From positions 14,273 through 78,272 of the forward strand of contig JAPPMP010000033.1 in the NCBI GenBank assembly GCA_028819005.1: 64,000 nt of DNA. The letters run 5' to 3'. The translations under genes were made by a program, and so were the position numbers. Shown one piece after another: positions 3,239-47,340 of the stretch. Numbering within the stretch: position 1 is the stretch's first letter; each line of letters starts with the position of its first letter. Source of the stretch: Acidimicrobiaceae bacterium. GTDB taxonomy: Bacteria > Actinomycetota > Acidimicrobiia > Acidimicrobiales > Aldehydirespiratoraceae. Under the pieces are notes generated by a model. It saw only the letters and a program-made list of their open reading frames with translations, made no database searches and was not told where the DNA came from.

Positions 3239-4282
3239 TCACGTACTCTCAGCGCCGGTTTGGTTGCCGCGGCGGGCGCGCATGCGCTCCTTCATGCGGG
3301 CGTGGGCTTCAGGGGTGCCGTCATGGAAGGTTCCGAAGAGCTTGTCGATCGGCACCGGGCGGTTGCCGTAGTTGCATTCGAAATAACGGTGGTGGAGATG
3401 GTGGTAGTAGTCGGCGCCGGGAGCGGTCCGGCCCTGGCGTCGGCCGATCTCGAACTGATCGAAACCGGAGTGAGAGACGGCCGGTGACAGGCCGTTGAAC
3501 AACCCGCTGAGGATCACGATGAACGGGTGTGCTGGCACGACCCACCAGAGTAGAAAAACGCTGAAATAGATGACATGCTCGAGCGGGTGCATGGAGGTGC
3601 CGCTCCACGGCCCGGTGTTCACGTTGCGGTGATGCAGATAGTGGGCGTGGTCGTAGAACCAGCGCACGTGCAGCAGTCGATGGTTGAGATAGAAGTGGAT
3701 GACCGACCACAGGAACACGCCGACGGTGAGCGCCCCCAGGTACAGCCACGCCGAGTCCCAGCCTGTGGAAGCAACCCAGTCATTGGCGTATGCCCACAGG
3801 GTGAGTGATTCGTACACGGTCCAGATCCCGCAGCCGCTGACGAGGCTCCAGAACATGTTGTCCCGCGTCTGGTTGGTCCACAGGAACGACTTGTTGGTGG
3901 TGCTGAGCCAGCGCTGGTTGTACTTGTAGCGCTGCTGTTGGGCTTGGCGGCTGTACAGGAAAAGGTGGAGTGATCCCGCGACCAGACTCAACAGCACGAC
4001 ATTGCGCAAGTATATCTCTAGCATCCACGCCGGATGGAGGTCCGCCATGCGGTCCATCGACGGGGTGAGATAGTTCCAGGTCAGAGCCGCCAGTGCCACC
4101 CAGAAGATCCCGTAGGGCAGCATCACCGGTGTGAGCAGGTAGCGCAGCGTCGCCAGCGGACGCGGCGGCCAGTCAAGGATCGGCGACACCGTTATCGGCA
4201 CCGCCGGTTCGTAGCCCTTGGACTCGGGGCCCCGTCCCGTGTTGAGCGGTGCCGTGCTGTTCGTCGGGGACGTGTCTGCCAT
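3239..4282 (-). CDS. sterol desaturase / fatty-acid hydroxylase family membrane protein
   Basis: His boxes HFYLNHRLLH, HYLHHRN and HHLHH. Start is ATG at 4282, preceded by GAAGGAGG. The longer 587-aa ORF extension overlaps the next gene. Confidence 0.8.
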   Translation of the reverse strand: MADTSPTNSTAPLNTGRGPESKGYEPAVPITVSPILDWPPRPLATLRYLLTPVMLPYGIFWVALAALTWNYLTPSMDRMADLHPAWMLEIYLRNVVLLSLVAGSLHLFLYSRQAQQQRYKYNQRWLSTTNKSFLWTNQTRDNMFWSLVSGCGIWTVYESLTLWAYANDWVASTGWDSAWLYLGALTVGVFLWSVIHFYLNHRLLHVRWFYDHAHYLHHRNVNTGPWSGTSMHPLEHVIYFSVFLLWWVVPAHPFIVILSGLFNGLSPAVSHSGFDQFEIGRRQGRTAPGADYYHHLHHRYFECNYGNRPVPIDKLFGTFHDGTPEAHARMKERMRARRGNQTGAEST

Positions 4283-4380
4283 AAGGCGTGCGACCTCCTT
4301 CAAGCGGGCTGCTTGCCAGCCGAGCAGACACGCTCGACTGACACCGAATCGTACACCCTCGCCACGCCCGAAGGAACAGC

Positions 4381-6189
4381 TCAGCGGACGGCGTGAGCGG
4401 GTGCCGGCGCGATGGTGAACTCCATCACGTCGTCGTCGACCGGCTGGCGGCCGATGAACTTCCGGTCCCTCAGATAGTTCTGGGTGTTGAGCCAGGGCTC
4501 GCGGTCGCCCTGGCGAGGCAGCAGATGCATGGCCCGCTTGATGTAGCCCGCTGGGAAGTCGTCGATGAAGGGCCGCGGCGCCATGTCGTGGTCGGTCGGA
4601 CGCAGACGCGGCGTGCACTGGGTCGTCCCCGTTTCGCGCATGTGGTTCAGCAGGCGACAGACGTAGCCGGCGTTCAGGTCCACCCGCAGGGTCCAGGACG
4701 AGTTGATGTATCCGAAGGTCGTCACGAGATTGGGCACATCGGAGAAGGCCATGCCCTTGTAGGTCCAGGTCTCGCCCAGATTGACGGGTTGGCCGTCGAC
4801 TTCGAGCTCGACCTGCCCCAGCGCCACGAGCTGCAGGCCCGTGGCGGTGACGATGATGTCGGCTTCGAGTTCCGTGCCCGATTCGAGCAGGATGCCTTTC
4901 TCGGTGAACGTGTCGATCGTGTCGGTAACCACCGAAGCCGACCCGTTGCTGATGGATTCGTAGAGGTCGCCGTCGGGGATCAGGCATAGTCGCTGGTCCC
5001 AAGGGTTGTATTGGGGCGTGAAGTGGGTGTCGACGTCGTAGTCGGGTCCGAGAGCTTCGCGGGCGGCCTCAAGGAGCCGTTCTTTGAGACGCTCTGGTTT
5101 GGTGCGCGACATCCGGTAGATGAGGTGTATGCGGACGATGTTCTTCCAGCGGGTCAGCCAGTAGGCGAGCCGTTCGGGCAGCACTCGCTTGAGCCTCTGG
5201 TTGAACGGATCGACGGCGGGCGCGGGCGCCATGTAGGTGGGCGATCGCTGCAGCATGGTGATGTGCGCGGTCTTGGCGGCCATCGCCGGCACGAGGGTTA
5301 CCGCGGTGGCGCCAGAGCCGATAACGACCACACGCTTGTCCTTGTAGTCAAGGTCTTCGGGCCAGGCCTGCGGGTGGACGATCTGGCCACCGAAGCGCTC
5401 AACCCCCCGGAATTCGGGAGTGAACCCCTCCCGGTAGGAGTAGTAGCCCGAGCACATGTTCAAGAAGCCGGCCTTCATTGTGCTGTGCTCGCCGGTGTCG
5501 GTGTGTTCCACCGCGACCGTCCAGCGCTGCTCGGCGCTCGACCACGAGGCCCGCTGCACGCGCCGGTTGAAGTGAATGCGGCGAGCGAGGTCGTTCTCTT
5601 CGATGGTCTCTTTGAGATAGTCGAGGATTGCGGGTCCGTCGGCGATGGACTTGTCAGCGGTCCAGGGTTTGAAGCTGTAGCCGAGGGTGTGCATGTCGCT
5701 GTCGGAACGCACCCCGGGATACCGGAAGAGGTCCCAGGTACCGCCGACGTCGGGCCGTCCTTCGAGGATCGCGAACGTGCGGTCCGGGCACTGGTTCTGC
5801 AGGTAGTACCCCATCCCGATCCCCGAGATCCCCGCCCCGACCACAAGCACGTCTGTGTTGTTGCCGGGCGCGTTGCTTTCGCCGGGCGTAGCCGGAGCCC
5901 CGGAGGCGTTGTTGTTGCCTGGCGCGTTGTTGTTGCCGGGCGTAGCCGGAGCCCCGGAGGCGTTGCTTTCGCCGGGCGTAGCCGAAACTCCGGAGGCCGC
6001 GGGAGCCGCTGGGTCTTCATCCCGTCGGTGACCGCCCCGACCGGTCTGAGCCCCGGCGGCCGCGGGAGCCGCGGGATCCGTACTGTTGGCGGCGGTGGCG
6101 CTGGGAGAGCGGTCGTTCACGGGGTAAGTATGGCGGGTTGCGCGGGCTAGTCCTCGAAGAGGTGGTACATGGCAGCGGTCGCGCTGCAC
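4381..6189 (-). CDS. Baeyer-Villiger-type flavin monooxygenase with repeat-rich N-terminal extension
   Basis: DVLVVGAGISGIG, GGTWDLFRYPGVRSDSD and VVVIGSGATAVTL. The start is uncertain (6189 or GTG 6120). Confidence 0.85.
   Translation of the reverse strand: MQRDRCHVPPLRGLARATRHTYPVNDRSPSATAANSTDPAAPAAAGAQTGRGGHRRDEDPAAPAASGVSATPGESNASGAPATPGNNNAPGNNNASGAPATPGESNAPGNNTDVLVVGAGISGIGMGYYLQNQCPDRTFAILEGRPDVGGTWDLFRYPGVRSDSDMHTLGYSFKPWTADKSIADGPAILDYLKETIEENDLARRIHFNRRVQRASWSSAEQRWTVAVEHTDTGEHSTMKAGFLNMCSGYYSYREGFTPEFRGVERFGGQIVHPQAWPEDLDYKDKRVVVIGSGATAVTLVPAMAAKTAHITMLQRSPTYMAPAPAVDPFNQRLKRVLPERLAYWLTRWKNIVRIHLIYRMSRTKPERLKERLLEAAREALGPDYDVDTHFTPQYNPWDQRLCLIPDGDLYESISNGSASVVTDTIDTFTEKGILLESGTELEADIIVTATGLQLVALGQVELEVDGQPVNLGETWTYKGMAFSDVPNLVTTFGYINSSWTLRVDLNAGYVCRLLNHMRETGTTQCTPRLRPTDHDMAPRPFIDDFPAGYIKRAMHLLPRQGDREPWLNTQNYLRDRKFIGRQPVDDDVMEFTIAPAPAHAVR
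5863..5997. repeat. imperfect tandem repeat (about 45-54-bp units) encoding ASGAPATPG(E/N)(S/N)NAPGNN
   Basis: Units read at 5863-5907, 5908-5958 and 5959-5997. The region lies inside the 5' part of the monooxygenase ORF. Confidence 0.8.
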
Positions 6190-6923
6190 ATCATGTCGAC
6201 CCGGTCCGAGCGCTCGACGGTGGCGGCGAACTTCAACCCGTCGTCGCCGAGCCAGCGGCCGCCCTCGCCGAGTGCATCGAGCGCAGGAGCAACGACCGTA
6301 CGCGGGTCGACAGGCGGACCTCCCATGCGTTCATGGTCGGGATTGCTGGAACGGAGGGCTGGGGTGTCCATGCTCGGAGCGACGATGGCCAACGTGTCGA
6401 CGCCGGAGTCTTTCAGTTCCCAGCCGATCGCCTCGATCAGGTTGATGGAGAACGCCTTGGTCGCGCTGTAGAGGCCCACACAGGCGGTGCCTGCCAGCGC
6501 GGAGCCCGAACTGGTGACAACGAAACCGCCGCGACCGCGCTCGGCCATGGCCGGCAGCGCCCACGAAGCCAGATCGACAGTTGCCCTGCAGTTGACGTCG
6601 AGGGTCTTGCGACGCATCTCCGCGTCCATGTCGAGAAACGGGCGAACATACGAGACGCCCGCGTTCGCCACCGCGATTCCGATCTCAAGCCCAGCGGTCT
6701 GCTCGGTGAGCACGTCGATCCATCCGGGGTCGCTCACATCGGTGATGACCGTGCGGGTCCTCCCGCCGAGTCCGGCGGCGGTCTCTACGACTCCCGGCGA
6801 GATGTCGACCATCACGACCCCGACTCCCCGGGATATCAGTTCCTCGGTGTACGCCAGTCCCACGCCGGCGCCCGCCCCTGTCACCACACCCCACGGACCG
6901 TATTTCTCAGCAAAGCCTGTCAT
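6147..6923 (-). CDS. SDR-family short-chain dehydrogenase/reductase
   Basis: The N-terminal GVVTGAGAGVG motif, the downstream YSATK motif and a length of 258 aa fit this family. Confidence 0.85.
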   Translation of the reverse strand: MTGFAEKYGPWGVVTGAGAGVGLAYTEELISRGVGVVMVDISPGVVETAAGLGGRTRTVITDVSDPGWIDVLTEQTAGLEIGIAVANAGVSYVRPFLDMDAEMRRKTLDVNCRATVDLASWALPAMAERGRGGFVVTSSGSALAGTACVGLYSATKAFSINLIEAIGWELKDSGVDTLAIVAPSMDTPALRSSNPDHERMGGPPVDPRTVVAPALDALGEGGRWLGDDGLKFAATVERSDRVDMMCSATAAMYHLFED

Positions 6924-6977
6924 GGCACAACCTTGCCAGAGCCTGTACCGATCAGTCGAAACGGGTACCGAGGGCCG

Positions 6978-7382
6978 CTAAGGCCAGGAGCGCCATGCGC
7001 TCACGTCGAGCGCGATCACCGGACCGGGCGGTCGTGCGGAGCGATACTGCGGGTACTTGCCGGCTAGCAGGTCCAACGCCCTGTTGCGCTCGTCGCCGTC
7101 GGTCAGCACCCGTGCGGTGCAGTCCAGTCGGATCCACCAGAGCTCCGACCAGTCGTCTTCATAGTGATCAACCAGCAAGCAGGCCTCCGGGTGGGCGGCG
7201 AGGTTGTCCAGCCGGCGCAACGCCGGCGTCGACTTCGGTTTGGCGTCCACGGCCGAGTACACGATGTCCCCGTCGAGCACGAAGCAGCACGGCACCGCAT
7301 GCGGCCGTCCGTCAGCGGTGATCGTGCTCAAAACCCCCGACCGAGCTTCCGACGCCCGTCGCCGCATCTGCGTTGAACCCAC
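6978..7382 (-). CDS. PPOX-class (pyridoxamine 5'-phosphate oxidase-like) probable F420-dependent protein
   Basis: 134 aa. GVLSTITADGRPHAVPCCFVLDGD and WWIRLDC are typical of this split-barrel family. Confidence 0.7.
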   Translation of the reverse strand: MGSTQMRRRASEARSGVLSTITADGRPHAVPCCFVLDGDIVYSAVDAKPKSTPALRRLDNLAAHPEACLLVDHYEDDWSELWWIRLDCTARVLTDGDERNRALDLLAGKYPQYRSARPPGPVIALDVSAWRSWP

Positions 7383-7452
7383 GCCTCAACCCTACGCAAC
7401 GAGCGAGCGCTATGGCTATGCAAATGTTGGCCCGCTGTATTGTTACGACGTA

Positions 7453-7493
7453 CAACCGCCAGTTTATTGGATAGTCAACCGCCACTTTATTGG
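7453..7493. promoter_or_regulatory. two direct 18-bp repeats CAACCGCCA(G/C)TTTATTGG in an AT-rich leader
   Basis: Repeats at 7453-7470 and 7476-7493. The second contains the inverted repeat CCGCCA-n7-TGGCGG. They lie 54-94 nt upstream of the ATPase start. Confidence 0.4.
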
Positions 7494-7546
7494 CGGATAT
7501 AACTATTTTTGATGTATGATAATGGTTTCTGAACAAAGGAAGCACC

Positions 7547-8857
7547 GTGGATCCCGTCAACATAGAACACAATGGTTCCGGTACGAGCGAGATCGGGCCG
7601 GCCGGATACCTGCCGCGGCTGGTAGACGAACGAATGAGCGTGGCGCTGCGGACTATGCCGGCGGTTGTCGTAGAGGGTCCCCGAGCGTGCGGCAAGACAT
7701 GGACTGGCAGGCATTTCGCGGCCAGTGCCGTCTACCTCGATGAACGAGTGAATGCCGCGCTGGCAGCGGGAATTGATCCGGCGTCAATCCTCGACGGGGA
7801 GACACCCCGTTTGCTGGACGAATGGCAGATCGCTCCCGCCGTGTGGAACACCATGCGGCGCGCTTGCGATGCCCGCGGCCTGCGCGGCCAGTTCATTCTC
7901 ACCGGTTCCGCCGACCCGCCTGACGACATCACTCGGCATTCGGGAGCCGGGCGGATCATGCGCGTGCCGATGCGGACGATGAGCTTGTTCGAGAGCGGGG
8001 AATCGAGCGGTGACGTCTCGTTTCAGAGCCTGATCGACGGTGAGCCATGTACCGCAGCGGACGGGGGTTTGTCACTGGGCGATGTAGTTGCGCTGGCATG
8101 CCGCGGTGGATGGCCCCAGCAACTCGCCGCCGATCTGCCGACTGCGACGGGCGCCGCCCGCGCTTACTTGGATGAGATCAGCCGTACTGACGTGTCACGG
8201 GTCGACGGCGCCGAGCGAGACCCGACGCGAGTGCGAAGATTGCTCGCATCAATTGCGCGAAACGTGGCCACCGAGGTGCGGCACACGGTGCTTGCGGCAG
8301 ACACCGCGACAGCAGGGGAGCCTCCATTGGAGCGACGGACCGTCGCGAGCTACCTCGCAGCATTGGGGCGCTTGTTCGTTGTCGAAGAGATTCCCGCGTG
8401 GAGACCTCACATCGCCTCTCGGGCTCAGGCCCGCAACTCTGCGAAGATCCATCTCGTTGATCCGTCGCTAACCGTGGCAGCCTTGCGGCTCACGGTCGAC
8501 ATGCTCATGCGCGACCTCAGCTTCGTTGGGCGGCTGTTCGAGTCGATGGCACTGCGCGACCTGCAAATCTACGCGGCAGCCATCGAGTGCTCGTTGTCGC
8601 ATTATCGCGACAGTCACCACCTTGAGGTCGACGCGATCATCGAACACCCGGATGGCAGATGGGCGGCCGCGGAGATCAAGCTCGGAGGCTCGGAGGCGAT
8701 CGACAAGGGCGCCGAGTCGCTCTTGCGGTTGCGGGCCAGGCTGAAGGGAGGCCGCACCGGCGCCCCGGCACGGCTCGCCGTCGTCACCGCCACGGGCTTC
8801 GCCTACGAGCGACCCGATGGCGTCTGCGTGGTCCCACTCACCTCGCTGCGCCCATAG
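7547..8857 (+). CDS. AAA-family ATPase with C-terminal DUF4143 domain
   Basis: Walker A GPRACGKTW, the KIHLVDPSL motif and a DUF4143-like tail (YRDSHHLEVDAII...AAEIKLG). Confidence 0.8.
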   Translation: MDPVNIEHNGSGTSEIGPAGYLPRLVDERMSVALRTMPAVVVEGPRACGKTWTGRHFAASAVYLDERVNAALAAGIDPASILDGETPRLLDEWQIAPAVWNTMRRACDARGLRGQFILTGSADPPDDITRHSGAGRIMRVPMRTMSLFESGESSGDVSFQSLIDGEPCTAADGGLSLGDVVALACRGGWPQQLAADLPTATGAARAYLDEISRTDVSRVDGAERDPTRVRRLLASIARNVATEVRHTVLAADTATAGEPPLERRTVASYLAALGRLFVVEEIPAWRPHIASRAQARNSAKIHLVDPSLTVAALRLTVDMLMRDLSFVGRLFESMALRDLQIYAAAIECSLSHYRDSHHLEVDAIIEHPDGRWAAAEIKLGGSEAIDKGAESLLRLRARLKGGRTGAPARLAVVTATGFAYERPDGVCVVPLTSLRP

Positions 8858-8899: not shown

Positions 8900-8973
8900 T
8901 CGGGCAGGCGGGATTTGAACCCACGACCTCCTCGTCCCGAACGAGGCGCGCTACCAACCTGCGCCACTGCCCG
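8900..8973 (-). tRNA. tRNA-Pro (anticodon CGG)
   Basis: The 74-nt cloverleaf was folded by hand. Acceptor CGGGCAG/CTGCCCG, anticodon loop TTCGGGA, T-loop GGTTCAAAT. CCA is not encoded. Confidence 0.9.
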
Positions 8974-8991: not shown

Positions 8992-9372
8992 TTATCGGCT
9001 CTCGGTGAGCGACGCGAGCGCTTTGTTGATCGTTCGCAGAGTGCTGAAGGCGTCGAGCGGCTTGATCAGCCACCCGTCGGGAGCTGCTCGGCCGGCCAGG
9101 AAGACATCGGCCTCTCGGTCGAGCAGCAGGTAGATGACGCTGGGGTCGAGTCGGCCCGCCTCCTCCTCCTGGCGGACCGCCAGACACGCAGCTACGCCGC
9201 CCATGTTGCCGATCTGGAAGTCGAGCAGCACAAGATCGGGGTTTATCTCAGCGATAGCAGGCACGACGTCGGCACCGTTGCTCACCCGGTGAATGAGATG
9301 AGTGCCCCCGACTGCGGCCTCGATGTCGTCGACCAACCAGTCGGCGTCTGTCGCAAGGAGGATGTCGGACAC
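8992..9372 (-). CDS. single-domain response regulator (receiver only)
   Basis: DLVLLDFQIGNMGG and WLIKPLD receiver motifs. Start is GTG 9372; the longer ORF extension is not supported. Confidence 0.7.
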   Translation of the reverse strand: MSDILLATDADWLVDDIEAAVGGTHLIHRVSNGADVVPAIAEINPDLVLLDFQIGNMGGVAACLAVRQEEEAGRLDPSVIYLLLDREADVFLAGRAAPDGWLIKPLDAFSTLRTINKALASLTESR

Positions 9373-9451
9373 GGGCCGAAGCGTACACCGCAGCGGCGGC
9401 GACCGCGATGTCGGCGAACGGTCAGAGACAACAACGCAACAAACAAAGAAC

Positions 9452-9745
9452 GCGCGCAAATTGGCGGGCCTTCGAGTTGCAGCCCGTTGTTCCCCGCTCC
9501 TGGTTCGCTGCGCTGCGTTTCCCGCTCTTGTTCGCTGCGCTCACCGGGCCGTTCGGTCCGCGGGCGGGCTCGGTCTGGCAAGGCCCGGCTCGTCACGGCC
9601 GCGGGCGGGCCCATCCTCTCCATCGAAGTCGTCAACGGGCTCAGCCCGGCTCGTCACGCCCGCGGGCGGGCCGCTCGGGCCACGGCCCGCAAATCAAGCT
9701 GCTCGCACTCGGAAGTCCTCTGCCAATTCGCGGGGCCTCTAGGAT
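9452..9745. mobile_element. MITE-like intergenic element, copy 1 (about 290 bp) with terminal inverted repeats
   Basis: The 5' end GCGCAAATTGGCGGGCCTTCGAGTTGC matches the reverse complement of the 3' end (GCGAATTGGCAGAGGACTTCCGAGTGC). A second copy lies at 44074-44280. Confidence 0.6.
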
Positions 9746-9756
9746 ACGATGCGCTT

Positions 9757-10101
9757 GTGCTTGAGATCTCAGCTAGCCGCGTCAGCGAGGGCAACTATGT
9801 TGTGCTTCGCCCCCAGGGAGAACTCGACGCTTACTCCGTCGCTCAGTTCCGTGAGGCTTTCGCCAAGGTTTCCGAGGAGCAGCGGCTGTTGGTGGACCTC
9901 TCGGGTGTGCAGTTCATGGATTCGGCGGGTCTTGGAGCCTTGATCGGCGGTATCCGCAAAGTTCGCGACAACGAAGGCCGGATCGCAGTTTTCAGCGATC
10001 GTGCGGCGATCTCCCGGTTGCTTCACACGACCGGGTTCGACCGGATCGTTCCCGTCAAAGAAGACGTGCTCGAAGCCGTTGCTGCTCTGAGCGAAACCTA
10101 A
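9757..10101 (+). CDS. STAS-domain anti-sigma-factor antagonist
   Basis: LDAYSVAQFREAF, DLSGVQFMDSAGLGALIG and FDRIVPV. GTG 9757 is the first plausible start in the frame of the 480-aa ORF. Confidence 0.8.
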   Translation: MLEISASRVSEGNYVVLRPQGELDAYSVAQFREAFAKVSEEQRLLVDLSGVQFMDSAGLGALIGGIRKVRDNEGRIAVFSDRAAISRLLHTTGFDRIVPVKEDVLEAVAALSET

Positions 10102-11222
10102 AGCGGGTCTTGCACGAGCAGCTCGGCGATATCGCCGAGCGCGGATATGTCGTGCACGTCGCTCGACAGCAGTGGAACTTTTGTGAGGGTGGCGTCGGGG
10201 ACGTGGGCCATGATCTGTGAGATTCTGTCTTCGTCGCCTGCGGAGGCGTGGACATGGTCGACGAGAGCCTGCGCAGCGCCGGCCAGAGGGCCTGCGCCCA
10301 ACCTGGCTTGAAGCTGTGCAGCCTCGTCGCCTGATGCTGATAGCGCTGCGAGCATGCGATTCGCCACTACCGCAAGGACCGACAGGTCGGCGTCGGCGAG
10401 CCTGTTGAGGAAGTAGAGCGCTTCGGCGATCGTGTCGCTGCGGGGCGAGGCGACGAGCACGAAAGCGGTGTCGTCGGAGGCCAGCAGCGACAGGGTCTCA
10501 TCGGCTCGTTTCTTGAAGCCCTCCTCCATGCCCTGAAACGTCTGAAAGAACTCGATGGCGTCATCGACGACCTCGGCGCCGACCACCCTCGCCAGACGGC
10601 GAACCACGCCACTCGCAGCCCTGTTCACGGCCTGCCGGACCCCGGGCCGCGGAGATATCAGCAGTTTGTAGATGGTGTTGTTGAGCAGCCTTGTCAGCAG
10701 TTTGGGGGCTTCGAAGAAGGCGAGAGCATCGCGGGTCGGCGGAGTGTCGACGACCACGAGGTCCCAGTCGCCCGAACAGTGCAGTTCATTCAGCTTCTCC
10801 ACCGCCATGTAGTCCTGGGTGCCCGGCAGTTCGGTCGACACGTTCACGTAGAAACGATTGCTGAAGATGTGCTCGACCTGCTCCTTGCTGGTGGCGTGGC
10901 GGGTGACCACATCATCGAAAGTGGCCTTGCTGTCGAGCATCATCGCCCCGAGAGTCCCCGTCCAGGCACCGTCGATCACGGTCGGCGTGTTGCCGAGTGC
11001 ATCGATTCCGAGGGCGTCGGCCAGGCGTTTGGCGGGGTCGATCGTGACCACCACAGCGCGCCGCCCGGCTCGGGCCGCGGCGACAGCGGTGGCCGCGGCC
11101 ATCGTCGTCTTGCCGACGCCGCCGGTGCCGCAGGCGACGATCACCCGCTTCCGGGCGACCAGGTCACCGTAGTTGCTCGGTGGAGTGCTTATTGGCGGAG
11201 TACGAGTCATCAACCGGTTCAC
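10098..11222 (-). CDS. ArsA/Get3-family ATPase
   Basis: Deviant Walker A CGTGGVGKTT, IDPAKRLADALG and VVDTPPT. Confidence 0.85.
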   Translation of the reverse strand: MNRLMTRTPPISTPPSNYGDLVARKRVIVACGTGGVGKTTMAAATAVAAARAGRRAVVVTIDPAKRLADALGIDALGNTPTVIDGAWTGTLGAMMLDSKATFDDVVTRHATSKEQVEHIFSNRFYVNVSTELPGTQDYMAVEKLNELHCSGDWDLVVVDTPPTRDALAFFEAPKLLTRLLNNTIYKLLISPRPGVRQAVNRAASGVVRRLARVVGAEVVDDAIEFFQTFQGMEEGFKKRADETLSLLASDDTAFVLVASPRSDTIAEALYFLNRLADADLSVLAVVANRMLAALSASGDEAAQLQARLGAGPLAGAAQALVDHVHASAGDEDRISQIMAHVPDATLTKVPLLSSDVHDISALGDIAELLVQDPL

Positions 11223-13974: not shown

Positions 13975-15705
13975 TCAGGCCGATTCATCCAGTGGCGGCA
14001 GTCTGGGTCCGCCGATCCGCAGATCACCACGACGCCGGGTGATCCCGTTGTCGTCGAGACAGGACAGCAGCGGAATGGCGTACTTGCGGCTCGTTCCCCA
14101 CTCGTCACGGACCTCGGCCACCGTGACCCCGTCGGGTTGACGGCTCAAAAGAGCGGCCACGACTCCAGCCGCAGCCGCGACCGCGCTCTTGGCGAAATAA
14201 ACCCCGTGGGCTTCGATCACGTCACCCCTGCGAACCAGCTCACGAAGTTCAGCCCGGTCGACGCCGGTGGGATCGGGAGGGGCGAACGGCGAGGCCTCCA
14301 GAGCATCCACGAAGGGATGCCCGGTCAATGTGTCGACCGCGTCGACAGCCCTCGCGTGGCCGTGGTCCACGGTCACGCCGACAAGGGTGTCCAACAACGC
14401 TCGTCCGAAGTCGTCGAGGGTTGCAATGTCTAGTCCTAGCGGCCCCGCTGCGGAGACGGCCTCGCCGAGCTCGACCCGACGGGCCTCCAACACCGCAGGG
14501 TCCACCGCCCAGTTCCCCACATCGGGTTCACGCCGCTCACCGGTCAGTCGCAGCAGATGGTCGACGTCCACTCGACCTCGTTCGGCGATCACCCGGTCCA
14601 AGCTCCGATCAGGCCGGGCTTTGGCAGCGGCGACTATCGGGTCGACGTCCAGGATCTCCCCTCCCCCGAGCGTCTCCCCCCGGCCCGATTCGCGAAGGAT
14701 GAACCGGTCCCCGGGCAACAGAGGCAGCCCCACCGGCAGATGCAGGCGAACCGCGCCCTCTGTGCCGGGCTGAATCTCCGAAGGGCCGAGCACACGGAGC
14801 CTGACCGGGAACTCCCCGGAGCCCAGATAGGCCATGTGAGCACCCCGTCGGGTGACCGGATGGTCAACGGCGTCAAGGACCTTCAACTGGCCGTCGATGC
14901 GCCGGGTGACATGCCACTGGTCGGCCCCTACGAGCACATCGCCGCGGGTCAGCTCGTCATGGCTGACCCCGGACAGGTTCAGTGCAACCCGGTTCCCCGG
15001 TCCCACCTTCGATCGTTCGGCATACAAGCTCTGCAGCGCCCGGACCCGTACAGCCCGCCGGTTGGGCAGAGCAGCCAATTCATCGCCTACCCGCACCCGG
15101 CCGCCGGTGAGGGTCCCCGTGACCACGGTCCCCGATCCCTTTGCGGCGAACACCCGGTCGATCCAGAGCCGCGGCCGCTTGTGGTCGACCGCTGTCGGTG
15201 TGCTCTCCAGCAACTCGTCGAGTGCTTGCTGGATGTCCTCGACGCCGGACCCGTCCAGAGCGTCCACGTCGACAATCGCCGCACCTTCCAGAAAGGTGCC
15301 CTCCGCGCGTTCCTCCACGTCGAGGCGCGCCAGTTCTCGCAAGTCCTCATCGGCCAAGGAGGCTTTCGTGAGCGCCAGCAGCCCGTGTTTGATCCCCAGC
15401 AGATCCAGGATCTGCAGATGTTCCTCGGACTGGGGCTTCCAACCCTCGGTGGCCGCCACCACGAAAACGCAGGCGTCTACGCTGCCAACCCCGGCCAGCA
15501 TGTTCTTGAGGAAGCGGACATGGCCGGGCACGTCGATGAACGCCACGCCTCTGCCGGAGGGGAGTTGCGTTGAAGCGAAGCCCAAGTCGATGGTGAGTCC
15601 GCGTGCCTTCTCCTCAGACAGCCGATCCGGGTCGGTGCCGGTCAGCGCCTTGACCAGGGTCGACTTGCCGTGGTCCACATGCCCGGCCGTAGCCACCACA
15701 TGCAT
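13975..15705 (-). CDS. selB: selenocysteine-specific translation elongation factor
   Basis: GTPase motifs AGHVDHGKS and DVPGH, followed by EF-Tu-like domains and winged-helix C-terminal domains. It lies immediately downstream of selA. Confidence 0.9.
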   Translation of the reverse strand: MHVVATAGHVDHGKSTLVKALTGTDPDRLSEEKARGLTIDLGFASTQLPSGRGVAFIDVPGHVRFLKNMLAGVGSVDACVFVVAATEGWKPQSEEHLQILDLLGIKHGLLALTKASLADEDLRELARLDVEERAEGTFLEGAAIVDVDALDGSGVEDIQQALDELLESTPTAVDHKRPRLWIDRVFAAKGSGTVVTGTLTGGRVRVGDELAALPNRRAVRVRALQSLYAERSKVGPGNRVALNLSGVSHDELTRGDVLVGADQWHVTRRIDGQLKVLDAVDHPVTRRGAHMAYLGSGEFPVRLRVLGPSEIQPGTEGAVRLHLPVGLPLLPGDRFILRESGRGETLGGGEILDVDPIVAAAKARPDRSLDRVIAERGRVDVDHLLRLTGERREPDVGNWAVDPAVLEARRVELGEAVSAAGPLGLDIATLDDFGRALLDTLVGVTVDHGHARAVDAVDTLTGHPFVDALEASPFAPPDPTGVDRAELRELVRRGDVIEAHGVYFAKSAVAAAAGVVAALLSRQPDGVTVAEVRDEWGTSRKYAIPLLSCLDDNGITRRRGDLRIGGPRLPPLDESA

Positions 15706-15740
15706 CGGTCAACACCCCCCGACGTGTGGCGAGCGGATCA

Positions 15741-17009
15741 TCAGTCAGAGCCGGGGGTCAAAGCAGCGGCAATCTCGGAGTCGTCGTCCGGGTGAACGGT
15801 GCGGAGATCGATGACGGTGCGCCCGTCGACGACCCGGGCAATTATCGGGCGCCGGTGGTTGCGCAGACGGTTGCGCTGGTCGCCTTCGACCGCCACGCCC
15901 GCAGACGGGATCTCCACTCCCGGCAAGGTCCCGCCACCTGGCGTGGAAGCGACGTCCACAACGACCCCGACGCCGATTTCCTGGGCTCGGGAGCGCAGCT
16001 CATCTTGGGACAGAGACGCCATTCGCCAAAACGGGATGGCGTCGCCGTCGCGATTCAGGTAGGCCAAAGCGGTGGCCTGCAAAGCCCCGAGGACCAGGGA
16101 GCCGGGTCTGAGGGCACGGGCCAGCGGATGGGCCGCGCACGCTGCCACCAGATCAGCGCGGCCCGCGATGATGCCCGCTTGTGGACCACCGAAGAGCTTG
16201 TCGCCGGAGAACGTGACCAGATCGGCGCCCGCCTCAAGCGTCTGACGAGCGGCTGGTTCGTTGTCCAGCCACCCGGGGGGTCCACCGGGCAGCCAGGAGC
16301 AACGGCTGTCGGCGAGTCCCGAACCGATGTCGGAGACCAGCGGGCGGCTGAGCGTGGCGAGCTCGGCGGTCCGGGGGGCTTCGGTGAAGCCGACGATCTT
16401 GTAGTTCGACTGGTGTACCTGCAGCACCACAGCGGCGGCATCGCCGTGCTGCTCGACCGCTCGTTTGAAATCGGCCAGCCTCGTGCGATTGGTGGTCCCG
16501 ACCTCGATGAGTCGTGCCCCCGAACGTTCCATCACGTCGGGAACCCGAAAACCCCCGCCGATCTCCACCAACTCGCCGCGGGAGACCACTACTCCTGAGC
16601 CCTCGGCGAGACTCGCCAACACGAGCAGCACCGCTGCCGCGCAATTGTTCACCACAATCGCAGCTTCAGCCCCGCAGACCTGGGCGATCAGCGCCGGAGC
16701 GGCGTCCATGCGCGAGCCGCGTTCTCCAGTCGTCAGATCGAACTCGAGATTCGAGTACTGCTCGGCTTGGTCCCAGCTGATCGGGGCACGACCGAGGTTG
16801 GTGTGCAGCAGCGTGCCGGTGCCGTTGATGACCGGGCGCAGCAGGCGGCGCCTGGCCGCGTCGTCGGCGATCTGACGTGCGCTTTCGGGGGCTCCGGCGT
16901 TGATCGCGGTGCGGGCCGCCTCCACGAGCATCGGGTGAGGAAGGCCGGTGTCGTGCAACGACCGGGCCAGCCGGTCGACCGACGGAGGGCGCGAAGTCTG
17001 TTCAGTCAC
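15741..17009 (-). CDS. selA: L-seryl-tRNA(Sec) selenium transferase
   Basis: The PLP-lysine motif FSGDKLFGGPQAGII, the N-terminal VDRLARS motif and a length of 422 aa fit SelA. Confidence 0.9.
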   Translation of the reverse strand: MTEQTSRPPSVDRLARSLHDTGLPHPMLVEAARTAINAGAPESARQIADDAARRRLLRPVINGTGTLLHTNLGRAPISWDQAEQYSNLEFDLTTGERGSRMDAAPALIAQVCGAEAAIVVNNCAAAVLLVLASLAEGSGVVVSRGELVEIGGGFRVPDVMERSGARLIEVGTTNRTRLADFKRAVEQHGDAAAVVLQVHQSNYKIVGFTEAPRTAELATLSRPLVSDIGSGLADSRCSWLPGGPPGWLDNEPAARQTLEAGADLVTFSGDKLFGGPQAGIIAGRADLVAACAAHPLARALRPGSLVLGALQATALAYLNRDGDAIPFWRMASLSQDELRSRAQEIGVGVVVDVASTPGGGTLPGVEIPSAGVAVEGDQRNRLRNHRRPIIARVVDGRTVIDLRTVHPDDDSEIAAALTPGSD

Positions 17010-19185: not shown

Positions 19186-20157
19186 CTATGGCTGGGTTGT
19201 ATATTGGACTGCCTCAGCGACCCGCTCAGCGAGTTGCACTGGCACGGCGTTGCCGATCTGCAGTTCGGTGTCGGCGTTGCGGTTGCGTCCGTCCCACTCC
19301 CATTCGATCGGGAATGTCTGGACTCGTCCCCTCTCGCGCGTCGTCAGAGGCCGAACCTCCGATGGTGGGACGCTGTCGAGATGATTGCCGGCGTACTTTG
19401 GCGGCACAGGTCGGTTCACTCCGCGCACGGTTGGCGACGGTTCATGCACAGAGAACACTGATCGGCGCGAGTAGTTGCGAGGATGACGATAGTAGAACTC
19501 GATGTTGATCTCTCCGCCCATGTACTGCTTCACCGTGAGACGTTGAGTCGCCTTTTTCGCGTCCAGATACTGTTCGAAGCGTTCTCCTTGGTCTCCGTTG
19601 CCCAGATATCCGAAAGCAAAGAACCTCCGCCTGATTTGCGGCACTCCATACCAGCTCGCATCGAGCACCGTTTCAACCACGGTGTAGCCTTCCGCAGAGA
19701 CAGTCTGCCGCATCCGTTTGTACGTCTCGCTCAGTCTGACCTGGGGGACGTTTTCCATGAGGAAGGCTGGTGGCTTGCAGCGTGCCAGAATGCGGCCAAA
19801 GGCGATTGTGAGGTTGGCATGACCGGCTTCAATCCGTTTGCCCGCCGTTGAGAAGTCTTGGCATGGTGGAGCACCGACGACCAGATCGGGAGCAAGGCTG
19901 GATATTCGTTCGCTGGTAGCGTCAACGTCGGACAAGTCGAACTCGACGGCGTGCCCGCCGATGTTGTGAACATAGGTTTCGAGGGCTTGGGGCCAGCAGT
20001 CGTAAGCCTCTGCGACGTCGATGCCAGCGCTTATCAACCCTTTTGAGAGTCCGCCGCATCCGCAGAACAGGTCTACCGCTCGTAGTGCCGATAGAGCAGT
20101 TTGCCGGGGGGATATCACGCTGGTCATGCTCATTAGATTGGCGCTGGGGTATGACAA
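19186..20157 (-). CDS. dcm: DNA (cytosine-5)-methyltransferase
   Basis: Motif I DLFCGCGG, motif IV PPCQDFS, motif VI ENV and motif X QIGNAVP. Confidence 0.9.
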   Translation of the reverse strand: MSYPSANLMSMTSVISPRQTALSALRAVDLFCGCGGLSKGLISAGIDVAEAYDCWPQALETYVHNIGGHAVEFDLSDVDATSERISSLAPDLVVGAPPCQDFSTAGKRIEAGHANLTIAFGRILARCKPPAFLMENVPQVRLSETYKRMRQTVSAEGYTVVETVLDASWYGVPQIRRRFFAFGYLGNGDQGERFEQYLDAKKATQRLTVKQYMGGEINIEFYYRHPRNYSRRSVFSVHEPSPTVRGVNRPVPPKYAGNHLDSVPPSEVRPLTTRERGRVQTFPIEWEWDGRNRNADTELQIGNAVPVQLAERVAEAVQYTTQP

Positions 20158-20345
20158 CGGCTCATTGAGTTCGACTCCGGCTCTGCACGATGATGATCAT
20201 ATGGGCGGTTCGGTGGAGTGTCACGGCTGAAGAGTCAGTCGTGGGCACGCACCTAGTTCCGGCAATAGACGCGCCCGCCTGATCTTGAGCGGATCCATTG
20301 ATTGAACACGGCCCGACAGATTGCTGTGGTTGGTAGAGTCCGGCC

Positions 20346-20783
20346 ATGAGCACGCTTCCCCGTGAGTCTTGGGCCTCCTCTGCGGCGACGCGGAAGTCCA
20401 TGCAGGGGAATCGCAGTCGTGATACCAAGCCGGAGTTGGCAGCACGTTCTCTGATTCACGCGCAGGGGCTTCGCTACCGTGTGGGCGACAGGCCGCTGCC
20501 GGGGCTCCGGCGGACTGCGGATCTGGTGTTCCGCAGAGACAAGATTGCGGTGTTCTTGGACGGCTGCTTCTGGCACGGTTGCCCCGAGCACCACACTCAA
20601 CCGTCGACCAACTTCGAATACTGGTCCGCGAAGATAAGCGGCAACATCGAGCGGGACAAAGACACCAACGCCCGCCTTGAGCAAGCCGGCTGGAAAGTCC
20701 TGCGCTTCTGGGAGCACGAGCCTCCCGAAACGGTCGCTGAGGTCGTATCGCAAGCAGTTCGCGCGAGTCGGGCAGGGGATTGA
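20346..20783 (+). CDS. vsr: very-short-patch repair endonuclease
   Basis: TKPELAARS, GLRYRV, FLDGCFWHGCPEH and VLRFWEHE. It is divergent from dcm. Confidence 0.9.
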   Translation: MSTLPRESWASSAATRKSMQGNRSRDTKPELAARSLIHAQGLRYRVGDRPLPGLRRTADLVFRRDKIAVFLDGCFWHGCPEHHTQPSTNFEYWSAKISGNIERDKDTNARLEQAGWKVLRFWEHEPPETVAEVVSQAVRASRAGD

Positions 20784-20866
20784 GCCCAGAGACAGCGAGA
20801 CGATTGTGGGTGGCAGCCGGTAAGGTGGGGGCGGTATCGTAGTAGTTCTTCTAGAGAGGAAGTCCT

Positions 20867-21187
20867 GTGATCACACTGACCGATTCCGCCGTGTCGAAAG
20901 TCGATGAACTCCTCACCGCAGAGGGGGAGGAAGGGCTGGCTCTGCGTGTGTCCGTGCGCCCCGGCGGCTGCTCGGGTTTCTCCTACGAGATGTATTTCGA
21001 CAACGAGAAGGCTTCCGACGACACGATGGTCGCCTACGGCCCCGTAGACGTGGTTGTGGATCCGTCGTCCGCCCAGCTTCTCGAGGGCGCCACGCTCGAC
21101 TACAAAGACGGCCTCACCGACGCCGGTTTCTCGATCGACAACCCCAACGCTCAACGCACCTGCGGCTGCGGCCAGAGTTTCAGCTGA
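20867..21187 (+). CDS. erpA: IscA/ErpA-type Fe-S cluster insertion protein
   Basis: GGCSGFSY and a C-terminal CGCGQSF. Confidence 0.9.
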   Translation: MITLTDSAVSKVDELLTAEGEEGLALRVSVRPGGCSGFSYEMYFDNEKASDDTMVAYGPVDVVVDPSSAQLLEGATLDYKDGLTDAGFSIDNPNAQRTCGCGQSFS

Positions 21188-21208
21188 CCCCTCTACAGGA
21201 CAGGCTCG

Positions 21209-21673
21209 TCAGGTCGAGCCTTCGGTCCACAGCCGGTCGATTGGCAGGGCTATGATACGGTCGTCGTCTTCAAAGCGGGTGCAGTAATCGCCTGTGTAAA
21301 ATACAACGCCGACGACAAATCGCTTGTCCAGGGCCTCGCGTAGCATCCGCAGGCCGCGCCGGTCGCGTCGATGGACCCTTCCGCTGGCCTTGACTTCAAT
21401 TCCGATGACTGAGCCGTCGTGCCCGTTTTCTATGACCAGATCGACCTCAGCTCCGTCGTGGGTGCGCCAATGGCCGACATGAGGTCGGTGTTCAAGCCAA
21501 GACGCTTGCTTGAGCACTTCACCGACGACGAATGTCTCGAGGAGGTGCCCGAACTGTTGCAATGATGTGGGGTCCAGCCCGGCGAGCTTTTCGGGTTGAA
21601 GGCTCAACAGCCTGGCCGCGACCCCTGAGTCGATGATGCGCAGCTTGGGGCGTGAGGCTACAGCAGAATGGAA
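21209..21673 (-). pseudogene. 5'-truncated DUF4143 AAA-ATPase gene (AAA domain missing)
   Basis: The listed 132-aa ORF starts at TTG. In-frame homology continues upstream (RPKLRIIDSGVAARLL, compare PKFYWVDCGVVRAL in 22686..23834) up to a stop at 21674-21676. No start codon and no Walker A are present. Confidence 0.65.
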
Positions 21674-21716
21674 TCAGGATTTCCACAGTTTGAAGACGAA
21701 CGGCTACGGTCGCGGT

Positions 21717-22664
21717 ATGACTGAGCGATCCTATGATCCAGAGTTTCTTGAGATTCTGCCGTTGCTGCCCACGCTCTCAGGTTTCTCCGATCTCGAGGAG
21801 ATTCATGCCATGCGGGACTCGATGGGCCTGTTTTTCACCGAGGTTGAACCCCGCGATGATGTGATCCGCGAGGACCGTGCGGTGCCGGGTCTCGACGGCG
21901 ACCCCGATGTGCCTGTGCGGATATACCGTCCAGAGGTGGCTCCCGCCGACCTTCTGCCCGCAGTGCTGGAGATCCACAGCGGCGGGTTCATGGTCGGATC
22001 GATCGAGATGATGGACTTCTGGTGCGATCGCGTGGCTGCCGAATTCCCGGCGGCAGTCGTGTCGGTCGAGTACCGACTGGCGCCCGAAGATCCTTTCCCA
22101 GCGGCGATCCACGATTGCTACGCGGCGCTCTTGTGGTTGGCCGACAATGCCGCGGAGCTGGGTGTAGACCCCGAGCGCGTGGCCATCGCCGGTCAGAGTG
22201 CCGGCGGCGGCCTGGCCGCGGGCACCGCGCTCATGGCCCGCGACCGCGGCGGGCCACCCTTGTGCTTCCAACTGCTGGAAATACCCGAACTGGATCATCG
22301 TCTCGAGACGCCGTCCATGAAGGAGTTCACCGATACGCCATTGTGGAATCGACCCAACGCAGTCTGGAGCTGGAAGCACTACTTGGGACCCGACCACGAA
22401 GGGCCTGTCTCGCCGTACGCGTCGCCTTCGGTGGCCGAAGACCTCTCAGGTCTGCCGCCTGCTTTCGTGTCGGTGATGGAGTTCGACCCGTTGCGTGATG
22501 AGGGGCTGACTTACGCAATGCGACTGCTCGAAGCCGGCGTGTCGACCGAGATCCACGCCTACCCGGGGACGTTCCACGCTTCGTCCATGGTGGCTGCCGC
22601 ACAGGTCAGCCTCAACAGCGCCCGTGACGCCTCGGCCGCCCTGCGCAAAGCGCTCGGTGCATAA
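21717..22664 (+). CDS. alpha/beta hydrolase (hormone-sensitive-lipase-like esterase)
   Basis: HSGGF oxyanion motif and the GQSAGG nucleophile elbow. ATG 21717 is preferred over 21633 because 21633-21673 overlaps the ATPase relic. Confidence 0.8.
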   Translation: MTERSYDPEFLEILPLLPTLSGFSDLEEIHAMRDSMGLFFTEVEPRDDVIREDRAVPGLDGDPDVPVRIYRPEVAPADLLPAVLEIHSGGFMVGSIEMMDFWCDRVAAEFPAAVVSVEYRLAPEDPFPAAIHDCYAALLWLADNAAELGVDPERVAIAGQSAGGGLAAGTALMARDRGGPPLCFQLLEIPELDHRLETPSMKEFTDTPLWNRPNAVWSWKHYLGPDHEGPVSPYASPSVAEDLSGLPPAFVSVMEFDPLRDEGLTYAMRLLEAGVSTEIHAYPGTFHASSMVAAAQVSLNSARDASAALRKALGA

Positions 22665-22685
22665 GCGAACAATTGGGCAGCAACT

Positions 22686-23834: not shown

Positions 23835-23870
23835 GCCATCTAAAATAGCCGAAAACCGACGGTATATCTG

Positions 23871-43061: not shown

Positions 43062-43994
43062 GTGGCGAAGGAGCGTGTCGAGAGGGACGAAGAGGATCTG
43101 GTCCGGCTGTATCTCACGGACATAGGCCAGTACCCGCTCTTGACCAAGGAGGGCGAAGTTCGCCTGGCTCAAGAGATTGAGGCTGGGATCGAAGCGCGTC
43201 GCGAACTGGCCGAGTCCAGGCCTTCTCCCGCGCGCCGCCGTGAGCTTCGTCGACTCTCCCGCAAGGGTGAGGCTGCGACCCGCACCTTCGTCCAGTCGAA
43301 CCTGCGACTCGTTGTCTCTATCGCCAAGAAGTACCAGGCCTCCGGTTTGCCGCTGCTCGACCTGATCCAAGAGGGCAATCTCGGTTTGATGCACGCCGTC
43401 GAGAAGTTCGATTGGCGCAAGGGGTTCAAGTTCTCGACGTACGCCACTTGGTGGATCCGCCAGGCGATCACCCGCGGAATCGCCAACACCGGGCGCACGA
43501 TCCGCCTGCCGGTGCATGCCGGCGACACTCTGGCGCGCCTGCAGAAGGCCCGAACCCGCTTGGAGCTCAAGTACGGTCGACCCGCCACGCTAAGCGAACT
43601 GGCCGCCGAAGTTGAGATGCCTGAGGACAAGGTGACCGAGGCGTTGCGGTTCGCGGCCGAGCCGTTGTCGCTTTCTGAGCCGTTGCGAGAGGACGGGGAT
43701 GCTGAACTCGGCGACGTCGTGGAGGATCGCGGCGCTGACTCTCCGTTCGAGGTGGCGGCCACGGCTCTGTTGCCCGAGGAGATCTCTCGGCTGCTGTCTC
43801 CGCTCGACGAGCGTGAGCGTGAGATTCTCAAGCTTCGGTTCGGCCTCGACCGGGGTGAGCCTCGGACTCTTGAAGAAGTGGGGGAGCATTTCAACCTCAC
43901 CCGTGAACGCATCCGTCAGATCGAGGCCCGAGCGATGTCGAAGCTGCGCCACCCATCATCGGACACCGGCGCCCGCGACCTCCTCAGCATCTAG
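43062..43994 (+). CDS. sigma-70 family RNA polymerase sigma factor (group 1/2-like)
   Basis: Region 2 LIQEGNLGLMHAVEKFDWRKGFKFSTYATWWIRQAI and region 4 TLEEVGEHFNLTRERIRQIE. Confidence 0.9.
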   Translation: MAKERVERDEEDLVRLYLTDIGQYPLLTKEGEVRLAQEIEAGIEARRELAESRPSPARRRELRRLSRKGEAATRTFVQSNLRLVVSIAKKYQASGLPLLDLIQEGNLGLMHAVEKFDWRKGFKFSTYATWWIRQAITRGIANTGRTIRLPVHAGDTLARLQKARTRLELKYGRPATLSELAAEVEMPEDKVTEALRFAAEPLSLSEPLREDGDAELGDVVEDRGADSPFEVAATALLPEEISRLLSPLDEREREILKLRFGLDRGEPRTLEEVGEHFNLTRERIRQIEARAMSKLRHPSSDTGARDLLSI

Positions 43995-44073: not shown

Positions 44074-44280
44074 GCGCGCAAATAGGCAGGCCTTCGAGTT
44101 GCAGTCGGTTGTTCCCCGCTCTTGGTTCGCTGCGCTGCATTTCCCGCTCTTGGTTCGCTGCGCTCACCGGCCCGCTCGGGCCGCGGGCGGGCCGCCGGCC
44201 ACGGCCCCGCAAATCAAACCGTTCGCACTCGAAACCGTTCGCACTCGAAAGTCATCTGCCTGTTTGCGTGGCCTCTCAGG
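44074..44280. mobile_element. MITE-like intergenic element, copy 2 (about 200 bp)
   Basis: It aligns with 9452-9745 at both ends. Terminal inverted repeats are CGCAAATAGGCAG..TTCGAGT and ACTCGAAA..CTGCCTGTTTGCG. An internal 16-bp unit is duplicated at 44219-44250. Confidence 0.6.
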
Positions 44281-44764
44281 TGGATGCCTTGTTGGACACA
44301 TGCAGTGTCAGTCCGCTCACCAGCAGGGTCCCGATGAACAGGCCTTGAGTCATTAAATGGTTCCTCTCGCCCAACAGGATCGCACCGGCTGACAGAAGTG
44401 CAAAGAACAGCACGCTGAGAGCGATGCAAGCGTGGCCGACTTCGTAGCGATGCGGTTTGCGGGTGACGAAAGCAATGAGCGACAGCAGGAACAGCAGGCC
44501 CAGCACCACCTCGATGATGCCGACGCCAGCGGCTAGAGGCGCTGCCAGCGACGTGTCCAACCCCAGTTTGGGCAGCATGTTTTGTTCGAGTCCCATTTTG
44601 AAGTTCACGCCGTAGAACTCTGCGCCGTTGAAAAACTTGTCGAAGCCGTTCAACAGCCAGAACAAGAACCAGTACAGGCTCAGCACCGCTCCGATACCGA
44701 CCTTCTCATTGATGCGAACAAGCATTCCCGCAATTCCGGGCGCGCCCGCAGTTCGATCATTCAT
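44276..44764 (-). CDS. DoxX-like membrane protein
   Basis: It has four hydrophobic segments and AAGGAGA lies upstream of ATG 44764. The family call is tentative. Confidence 0.55.
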   Translation of the reverse strand: MNDRTAGAPGIAGMLVRINEKVGIGAVLSLYWFLFWLLNGFDKFFNGAEFYGVNFKMGLEQNMLPKLGLDTSLAAPLAAGVGIIEVVLGLLFLLSLIAFVTRKPHRYEVGHACIALSVLFFALLSAGAILLGERNHLMTQGLFIGTLLVSGLTLHVSNKAST

Positions 44765-46288: not shown

Positions 46289-46421
46289 GGGATCTTACCC
46301 ATGTCGCGATTTCAGCCCCATGGCCTGAAGACGGTTGGGGATTGTTGGGGCAGCGCAGAGGTTCGGGGGCACGCACTGGCGGCTTCGACGCCCGGCGCCT
46401 GCCGACGTGCTCTGCGGCGGG

Positions 46422-46632: not shown

Positions 46633-46643
46633 CGCTGATAAGG

Positions 46644-47278: not shown

Positions 47279-47340
47279 GTGCCTAATTATACACATAGAT
47301 CAGACTGTCACGACTCCGACTTTCGTCAAAGAGCTTGAGG

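Follow-up and report, generated by a model that had tools for sequence, protein, structure and literature searches.

The window analysed here (the whole 64,000-nt stretch, hereafter the 64-kb window) holds a non-coding sequence that lies between a receiver-domain-like gene and a STAS-domain gene and recurs beside a sigma factor gene. The question that this raises is whether the repeat is a mobile element, a structured RNA or regulatory module tied to its neighbours, or a product of metagenome assembly, and what its presence may mean for the genes that it adjoins. The window belongs to the metagenome ENA ROBB21-1_SAMN13943215, in which its STAS protein is encoded on scaffold_286 (137.7 kb).

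Architecture of the two copies in the window

The gap between the receiver-domain-like gene and the STAS gene measures 384 nt (9373-9756) and is mostly occupied by copy 1 of the element. An earlier note on this DNA had placed a recurring element in this gap, which holds with nearly unchanged coordinates (9447/9449-9740 for copy 1 and 44071/44073-44276 for copy 2). The features of the first locus are as follows.

8992..9372, minus strand: divergent receiver-domain-like gene, 126 aa (weak Pfam Response_reg match)
9447/9449-9740, plus strand: element copy 1, long form, 292-294 nt (from homology to copy 2 and alignment to the empty sites of L042, L043, L063, L064 and L066)
9447..9485, plus strand: 5' terminal inverted repeat (AGAACGCGCGCAAATTGGCGGGCCTTCGAGTTGCAGCCC), which pairs with 9697-9740
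9489..9543, plus strand: unit A and unit B (TTCCCCGCTCYTGGTTCGCTGCGCT) in tandem, 27-28 nt each (from direct repeats and family alignments)
9542..9672, plus strand: G+C-rich hairpin module in amplified form, with ..CCGCGGGCGGGC.. in three versions (9542-9570, 9583-9611 and 9644-9672)
9697..9740, plus strand: 3' terminal inverted repeat (..CTCGCACTCGGAAGTCCTCTGCCAATTCGCGGGGCCTCT)
9757..10101, plus strand: STAS-domain gene, anti-sigma-factor antagonist type, 114 aa (called gene; Pfam STAS and STAS_2)

Copy 1 starts with AG (9447-48) followed by AACGCGCGCAAAT and terminates in GCGGGGCCTCT, after which a further AG stands at 9741-42. Family alignments identify unit B and the GGCC hairpin 3' of it as the core common to all family members, and the 3' terminus reads GGCCTCT wherever a 3' end is recognisable, the exception being copy E (CCCCTC), described below. 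The extra internal expansion reported earlier for copy 1 is borne out by the 29-nt repeats at 9583-9611 and 9644-9672, which are 97% identical and spaced 61 nt apart; this 61-nt unit is present twice in the window and once in the sister strain L041. The 126-aa product of the divergent gene scores 24.1 bits against Response_reg, below the cut-off of 30.2, and the match is weak in relatives too. An ordinary tRNA gene (8900-8973) lies just 3' of this gene, and several sister-sample contigs stop nearby.

The second copy lies between a sigma factor gene and a convergent reading frame.

43062..43994, plus strand: sigma-70-family sigma factor gene, with its stop 76 nt 5' of copy 2
44071/44073-44276, plus strand: element copy 2, 204-206 nt, with CAG on either side (44070-72 and 44277-79)
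44276..44764, minus strand: convergent ORF, 162 aa, presumed membrane protein (read from the sequence)

The two copies had been described as aligning at both their 5' and their 3' modules, and blastn agrees, with 119 nt aligned at 92% identity for the 5' modules (E 9e-44) and 56 nt at 86% identity for the 3' modules (E 3e-11). Core words of 16 and 18 nt have exact matches only at these two copies within the 64-kb window, and the 3-mismatch matches found elsewhere in it are weaker and look like chance. The convergent 162-aa ORF has no Pfam match. Its stop codon (TCA on the plus strand, 44276-78) straddles the final base of copy 2, and the reconstructed pre-insertion sequence gives an identical stop and an unchanged protein. 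If transcribed from either side, copy 2 would form a long hairpin, with a possible terminator-like or stabilising effect. A scan for promoter and terminator consensus sequences gave no site in or adjoining either element; three terminator-like sites in the second region (44554-44688) are inside the neighbouring gene.

Further copies in the same metagenome

One metagenome yielded at least six copies, of which four are near-complete and two are decayed, in ~103 kb on two contigs. The second contig, scaffold_48, putatively belongs to the genome of the window, as judged from its common sample of origin and matching G+C content (both 62.6%). The copies measure 136, 136, 175-177, 204-206, 252-254 and 292-294 nt, counting the 136-nt forms from the distant relative discussed below, and the 5' modules of those in the ~103 kb are 88-95% identical. 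When the contig of the window was extended by ~9 kb on each side, a decayed copy appeared on the left and nothing on the right; the remaining three came from scaffold_48.

L057 5311-5430, 9 kb left of the window: decayed copy between an unnamed gene and asd (from a profile search of fetched DNA)
Scaffold_48 region (L067) 10359-10610, plus strand: copy D
Scaffold_48 region (L067) 9024-9198, minus strand: copy E
Scaffold_48 region (L067) ~1905-2010: copy F, decayed

The decayed copy in L057 consists of the core and a diverged 3' end, without the 5' repeat. Copies D, E and F were reached through an exhaustive HMMER search with a spurious ORF that runs across copy 2, the sole match of which was another spurious ORF lying over an element copy on scaffold_48; the 20.6 kb around this match were then examined. 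That same search, made with one reading frame of copy 2, found no other homologue, and a six-frame peptide query against a word-indexed protein database returned nothing, a search of low power in which low-complexity proteins filled the candidate list. The earlier statement that the element encodes no protein therefore stands, as it is too short for a transposase and its frames are without homologues.

The genes beside the other copies are asd, ParA-like, NifU/ABC, selA/selB and esterase genes. A link to sigma-factor genes, which the two copies in the window might have implied, was rejected since the other copies adjoin these unrelated genes. Within L067 (9024-10610), E on the minus strand and D on the plus strand bracket the ParA-like gene in inverted arrangement with their 5' ends pointing inward, which could be coincidence or a composite arrangement.

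Empty sites, filled sites and strain variation

Relatives at graded distances were collected via the ArsA-like gene beside the STAS gene; the named homologues of the window's sigma factor and ArsA-like ATPase are nearly all from uncultured Acidimicrobiales or other actinobacterial MAGs. At the site of copy 1, the spacer is an uninterrupted 88 nt in L042, L043, L063-65 and L066 (counted as five relatives), with ArsA-like proteins 94, 88, 83 and 77% identical to that of the window among these empty-site relatives. When the element and one flanking AG are cut from the window sequence, it aligns again with the 88-nt spacers. As the spacers of the relatives are empty, copy 1 is a recent insertion.

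The only relative carrying copy 1 is the 99%-identical sister strain L041, so that two strains have the element at this site and five relatives have the empty spacer. At 323 nt, against 384 nt in the window, the spacer of L041 has one 61-nt unit fewer, and the L041 copy carries ~15 substitutions (~5%, against a background of 1%). Some of its variants are typical of copies D and E, which suggests a mosaic arising from gene conversion or from read mixing between copies. Copy 2 is shared by all four assemblies of the species, that of the window and three others, at one and the same site, with an indel of a 20-nt hairpin unit and N-gaps within the element. It is absent from L039 and L040, whose sigma genes are 88% identical in nucleotide sequence and whose downstream gene content differs as well.

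Some of these features could arise if the repeat were chimeric or duplicated sequence generated during metagenome assembly, as the element contains N-gaps and a duplicated flank in L045 and L046, and the L041 copy is a mosaic. Against this, the same insertions are present at the same sites in independent assemblies of three sister samples and an NCBI MAG, and related copies lie on 3.7 Mb long contigs from another study, so an artefact of this kind appears extremely improbable. The near-identical contigs (~99% in nucleotide sequence) come from two sister samples, a Logan assembly and the NCBI MAG GCA_028824095.1.

The interpretation of the repeat as a MITE-like element, put forward in the earlier note, is supported by both the further copies and the empty orthologous spacer in five relatives. 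The opposite outcome, in which only two copies existed and were conserved at orthologous sites, was named there as evidence against it, and neither half of that outcome was observed.

A short form in a distant relative

Relative L066, represented by a 3.7-Mb contig from a different study and having an ArsA-like protein 77% identical to that of the window, contains two 136-nt elements that follow the same plan at other sites. Their ends differ from those in the window (5' AGAACGTGCGCGGATTGACC, 3' GGTCAATCCGCTCGGCCTCT), and their core is ~92% identical to that of the window's decayed copy. The first, L066A, lies between two minus-strand genes and is antisense to both neighbours, so the orientation of the element is not linked to the adjacent genes. 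The second, L066B, cuts the last codons of selA, provides a new stop codon and has GAG on both flanks. The selA site is uninterrupted (GCTGCTTTGACCCCCGG) in four other genomes and filled by L066B in one, and L066B is a second, independent comparison of filled with empty sites. It shows a family that predates the species and has inserted at different sites in different lineages.

Three further observations concern the selenocysteine loci. A ~150-nt G+T-rich tract (GGGTT/GGTTTGG motifs) lies between copy B and selB in L066 (5420-5570) and has no counterpart in the other genomes. In L043 (~5290-5560), four tandem 79-nt units hold the selB start codon and first codons, either as a real duplication or as an assembly artefact. 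In the window, the tRNA-Sec gene (48110-48201, minus strand) is ~31 kb from selA/selB (~13975-16931).

Across lineages, the interior core has changed less than the terminal repeats. It may be that the core is a functional cargo, a protein-binding or RNA module, and that the family is a portable regulatory cassette, possibly moved by an unconventional NAG-targeting recombinase that leaves almost no duplication. This reading draws on the ~92% identity of the core, which exceeds the ends in conservation, between genomes with ArsA-like proteins of just 77% identity, and it is considered doubtful here. If true, the cassette would at copy 1 have taken the place of the upstream promoter region of an anti-sigma-antagonist gene with a leaderless mRNA.

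Inverted ends and the case for an RNA

The ends of the element are imperfect inverted repeats of ~35-40 nt with bulges, with gapless cores of 11-13 nt. The duplex between the two arms has an energy of -39.7 kcal/mol in copy 1, against ~-26 for shuffled arms (3 of 1000 as good), and of -46.6 kcal/mol in copy 2, against ~-23 (0 of 1000 as good); that of L066A also beats its shuffles, and the ends of L066B are degraded. These values agree with the earlier description of the ends of each copy as inverted repeats of one another. Over nine copies, 89% of cells are paired end to end; shuffles give 77%, and shifting the partner columns by 1-3 gives 32-45%. Two-sided changes occur in 12 of the 25 end pairs, compared with 5.7 in shuffles. 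Such kept complementarity would be expected if one protein recognised both ends, and is not by itself a sign of an RNA.

The alternative that the repeat is a structured cis-regulatory RNA or a small-RNA gene in paralogous copies, tied to sigma-factor control, draws on this long terminal stem maintained by compensatory changes, on the position of copy 1 before an anti-sigma antagonist gene and of copy 2 after a sigma factor gene, and on the conserved interior core described above. It is judged very unlikely, since the orthologous STAS and sigma loci of relatives are without the element, other copies stand beside unrelated genes and one copy is antisense to both its neighbours. The folding and Rfam checks that had been proposed earlier point the same way: folds of the whole element do not outdo those of shuffled sequences (z = +0.7 in copy 1, -1.8 in copy 2), neither strand folds better than the other, and the elements have no Rfam match at the gathering threshold, the best hits in permissive mode (E up to 10) reaching 20-22 bits against cut-offs of 59-78.

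Flanking repeats and the search for a partner

Among the five complete copies, the flanking direct repeats are 1-3 nt long, being perfect over 3 nt in two (copy 2, CAG/CAG; L066B, GAG/GAG) and imperfect in three (copy 1, AAG/AGG, or AG/AG; L066A, AAG/AAA; D, AAG/AAA), with the first nucleotide matching in all five. The AG on the left is invariant and may belong to the terminus of the element (AGA...TCT), which would reduce the repeat to 1 nt; a 3-nt NAG duplication and a 1-nt repeat both fit. A 1-nt flanking repeat is atypical for IS transposases, and those of the IS3, IS30 and IS5 types make duplications of 2-4 bp. Of the two features that the earlier note had proposed to check by BLASTN, copy number came to at least six in the ~103 kb, and target-site duplications gave flanks of just 1-3 nt.

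No partner transposase or IS with matching ends was found in the ~0.35 Mb fetched, where all called genes of the loci were covered, and the larger window ORFs at 19-33 kb have no transposase domains. An IS481-like element in L066 and an ISL3 element in L039 were considered as partners and rejected, as their ends are unrelated.

The missing partner IS, together with the short flanking repeats and constant left AG, is what would be expected of an intergenic repeat dispersed by other means than a classical DDE transposase, whether as a REP/BIME-like sequence moved by a RAYT, through a site-specific recombinase acting at the NAG core, or by gene conversion. The conserved core does hold G+C-rich GGCC hairpins, the interior is modular and variable, and the L041 copy carries variants of other copies, as gene conversion predicts. 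However, matching inverted ends of 35-40 nt that span 136-294 nt are unlike the 20-40-nt REP palindromes, the precise insertions and empty sites suit insertion by cut-or-copy-and-paste, and the fetched loci (~0.1 Mb of the genome covered) revealed neither a RAYT nor a recombinase gene; overall, spread of this type is regarded as unlikely.

Searches for the family beyond these loci covered several collections. Scans with GGCCTTCGAGTTGCAGNNNGTTG over one genome per species and with GGCNGGCCTTCGAGTTGCAG over a metagenome collection returned chance matches only, mostly in coding sequence; the sample of the window is outside both collections, and both patterns represent a 5'-end motif that is subfamily-specific, making them poor probes for the family. 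Three core patterns scanned against viral contigs gave 9, 0 and 0 matches, of which one was BLAST-matched over just 22 nt of the element, and the remaining eight were discarded as having no similarity outside the pattern.

Proposed origin

The repeat is most probably a non-autonomous, MITE-like DNA transposon family of an uncultured Acidimicrobiales lineage that is mobilised in trans. The repeat family itself, its inverted ends, its empty and filled sites and its strain-level length variation are direct observations, from which we infer movement by a transposase. The basic element would be ~136 nt long, with the core (TCTCCCGCTCTTGTTCGCTGCGCTCAC and GGCC hairpins) set between a 5' inverted repeat and a 3' one that ends in GGCCTCT. 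In the long forms of 204 and 292 nt, a 16-nt 3' unit would have been duplicated along with the core unit and the G+C-rich hairpin. These internal units may expand and contract by slippage between direct repeats, in a process that would still be changing their number between strains. A transposase encoded elsewhere presumably binds both matching ends and inserts the element, and insertion would leave a flanking repeat of 1-3 nt with the consensus NAG. Copy 2 would have been inserted exactly at the stop codon of the convergent gene, with the protein unaltered.

Copy 1 and the putative STAS promoter

Copy 1 ends 16 nt before the STAS start codon (9740 against the GTG at 9757), rather than about 12 nt as first estimated, and the interval contains a putative promoter element.

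9745..9759, plus strand: -10-like hexamer TACGAT (9745-9750), 6-nt spacer and GTG at 9757 (recognised by conservation; candidate promoter function)

The arrangement TAC[GT]AT + 6 nt + GTG is kept in six lineages, and the sequence 5' of this block varies. Its geometry matches that of an actinobacterial -10 box driving a leaderless mRNA. With a conserved -10-like box 6 nt from the GTG, the STAS mRNA is probably leaderless, which would place copy 1 outside any 5' UTR. The suggestion in the earlier note that copy 1 could supply the leader of the STAS gene is, on this reading, probably wrong in detail. The end of copy 1 is 4 nt from the -10-like box, and we infer that the element replaced the upstream promoter DNA of the STAS gene, not its leader; inserted 4 nt 5' of this box, it would now supply all of the DNA upstream of the core promoter. 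The divergent gene has been moved 296 nt farther from the STAS gene by the insertion. Any effect of the element on expression is a prediction from sequence.

Comparison with known repeats and significance

MITEs range in size from ~50 to 800 bp (PMC11602168), and the criteria used to recognise them are size, inverted ends, an absence of coding capacity, multiple copies and evidence of insertion (PMC11602168, PMC10969869). The element described here is within this size range, has inverted ends (gapless cores of 11-13 nt, ~35-40 nt with bulges, where at least 10-15 bp are asked for), no coding capacity and several dispersed copies, and is accompanied by insertion evidence. It was compared with the bacterial MITEs Correia/NEMIS of Neisseria, ERIC/IRU of enterobacteria, RUP of pneumococcus and MITEAba12 (PMC10969869, PMC3184786, PMC11602168). 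In common with bacterial MITEs, the element is short (136-294 nt), non-coding and multi-copy, with terminal inverted repeats and both full and decayed copies; it is mostly intergenic, often abuts start or stop codons, has filled and empty sites among relatives and can form a long hairpin if transcribed. It differs in having no sequence similarity to any of those compared, in its host, an uncultured member of the Acidimicrobiales, and in its flanking repeat of 1-3 nt (NAG) rather than the typical 2-10 bp, the flanking duplication of Correia being TA. Like Correia, copy 1 is placed where a promoter could be altered. An interior core more conserved than the ends departs from the usual MITE pattern, and no partner IS was found in the DNA fetched.

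Other classes of bacterial repeat share some of these features. MIRUs of mycobacteria are tandem direct repeats without terminal inverted repeats. The element resembles MIRU/VNTR loci as an intergenic actinobacterial repeat whose unit number varies between close strains (61-nt units in copy 1, a 20-nt unit in copy 2) and whose insertions touch the stop or start codons of flanking genes, but unlike MIRUs it is bounded by inverted ends, is single-copy and defined in its architecture, and inserts as a unit. REPs are single palindromes of 20-40 nt that cluster in alternating orientation and are associated with RAYT genes. The element has the G+C-rich palindromic hairpins, intergenic location and modular mosaic composition of REP/BIME sequences, whereas its hairpins are internal cargo of a larger unit bounded by long-range inverted repeats. 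Identity with REP/BIME was set aside, given a unit of 136-294 nt with such long-range inverted ends.

The element is a previously undescribed family of an ordinary kind of element, and searches of the literature on MITEs in Acidimicrobiia/Acidimicrobiales, and on the sample and MAG accessions, found no report. It adds a mobile-element family to the Acidimicrobiales, a widespread and mostly uncultured group, and leaves the general understanding of such elements unchanged. In practical terms, it breaks and corrupts metagenome assemblies (N-gaps, mosaic copies), its strain-variable internal units could act as a strain marker, and copy 1 offers a natural before-and-after promoter pair for the STAS gene, with an ancestral spacer of 88 nt to set against one of 384 nt.

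Other repeats and gene islands

Several other repeats were observed in the window. Positions 46420-46633 and 47339-47552 form a 214-nt direct repeat (93% identity), which corresponds to a duplication of the 3' part of a PIN (VapC-like) toxin gene, in a cluster of small toxin-antitoxin-like genes. A 27-nt direct repeat at 62866-62958, at the 3' end of a TilS-like gene, encodes a duplicated C-terminal AEPPPGGNE motif. Four tandem 17-nt units (CGCAACTACAGAACAGG) at 1561-1626 lie between a flavin-reductase gene and the next gene, and this site differs among sister assemblies, L058 having 37 nt duplicated and L060 an N-gap.

Two islands were also seen. A Druantia-like defence island at 19189-32235 (minus strand) comprises a C5 cytosine methylase (PADLOC MTase_II/DruM-like), an AAA_14/DUF4143 ATPase (PDC-S01) and a DruE helicase of 1666 aa (627 bits), next to which a 1124-aa protein without a Pfam or PADLOC match stands where DruH is expected. 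The sister strain L058 carries a DarT/DarG-like (ADP-ribosyl) and UvrD-helicase island at 3989-7724, which is missing from the same place in the contig of the window, between the PNPOx-like and hydantoinase genes.
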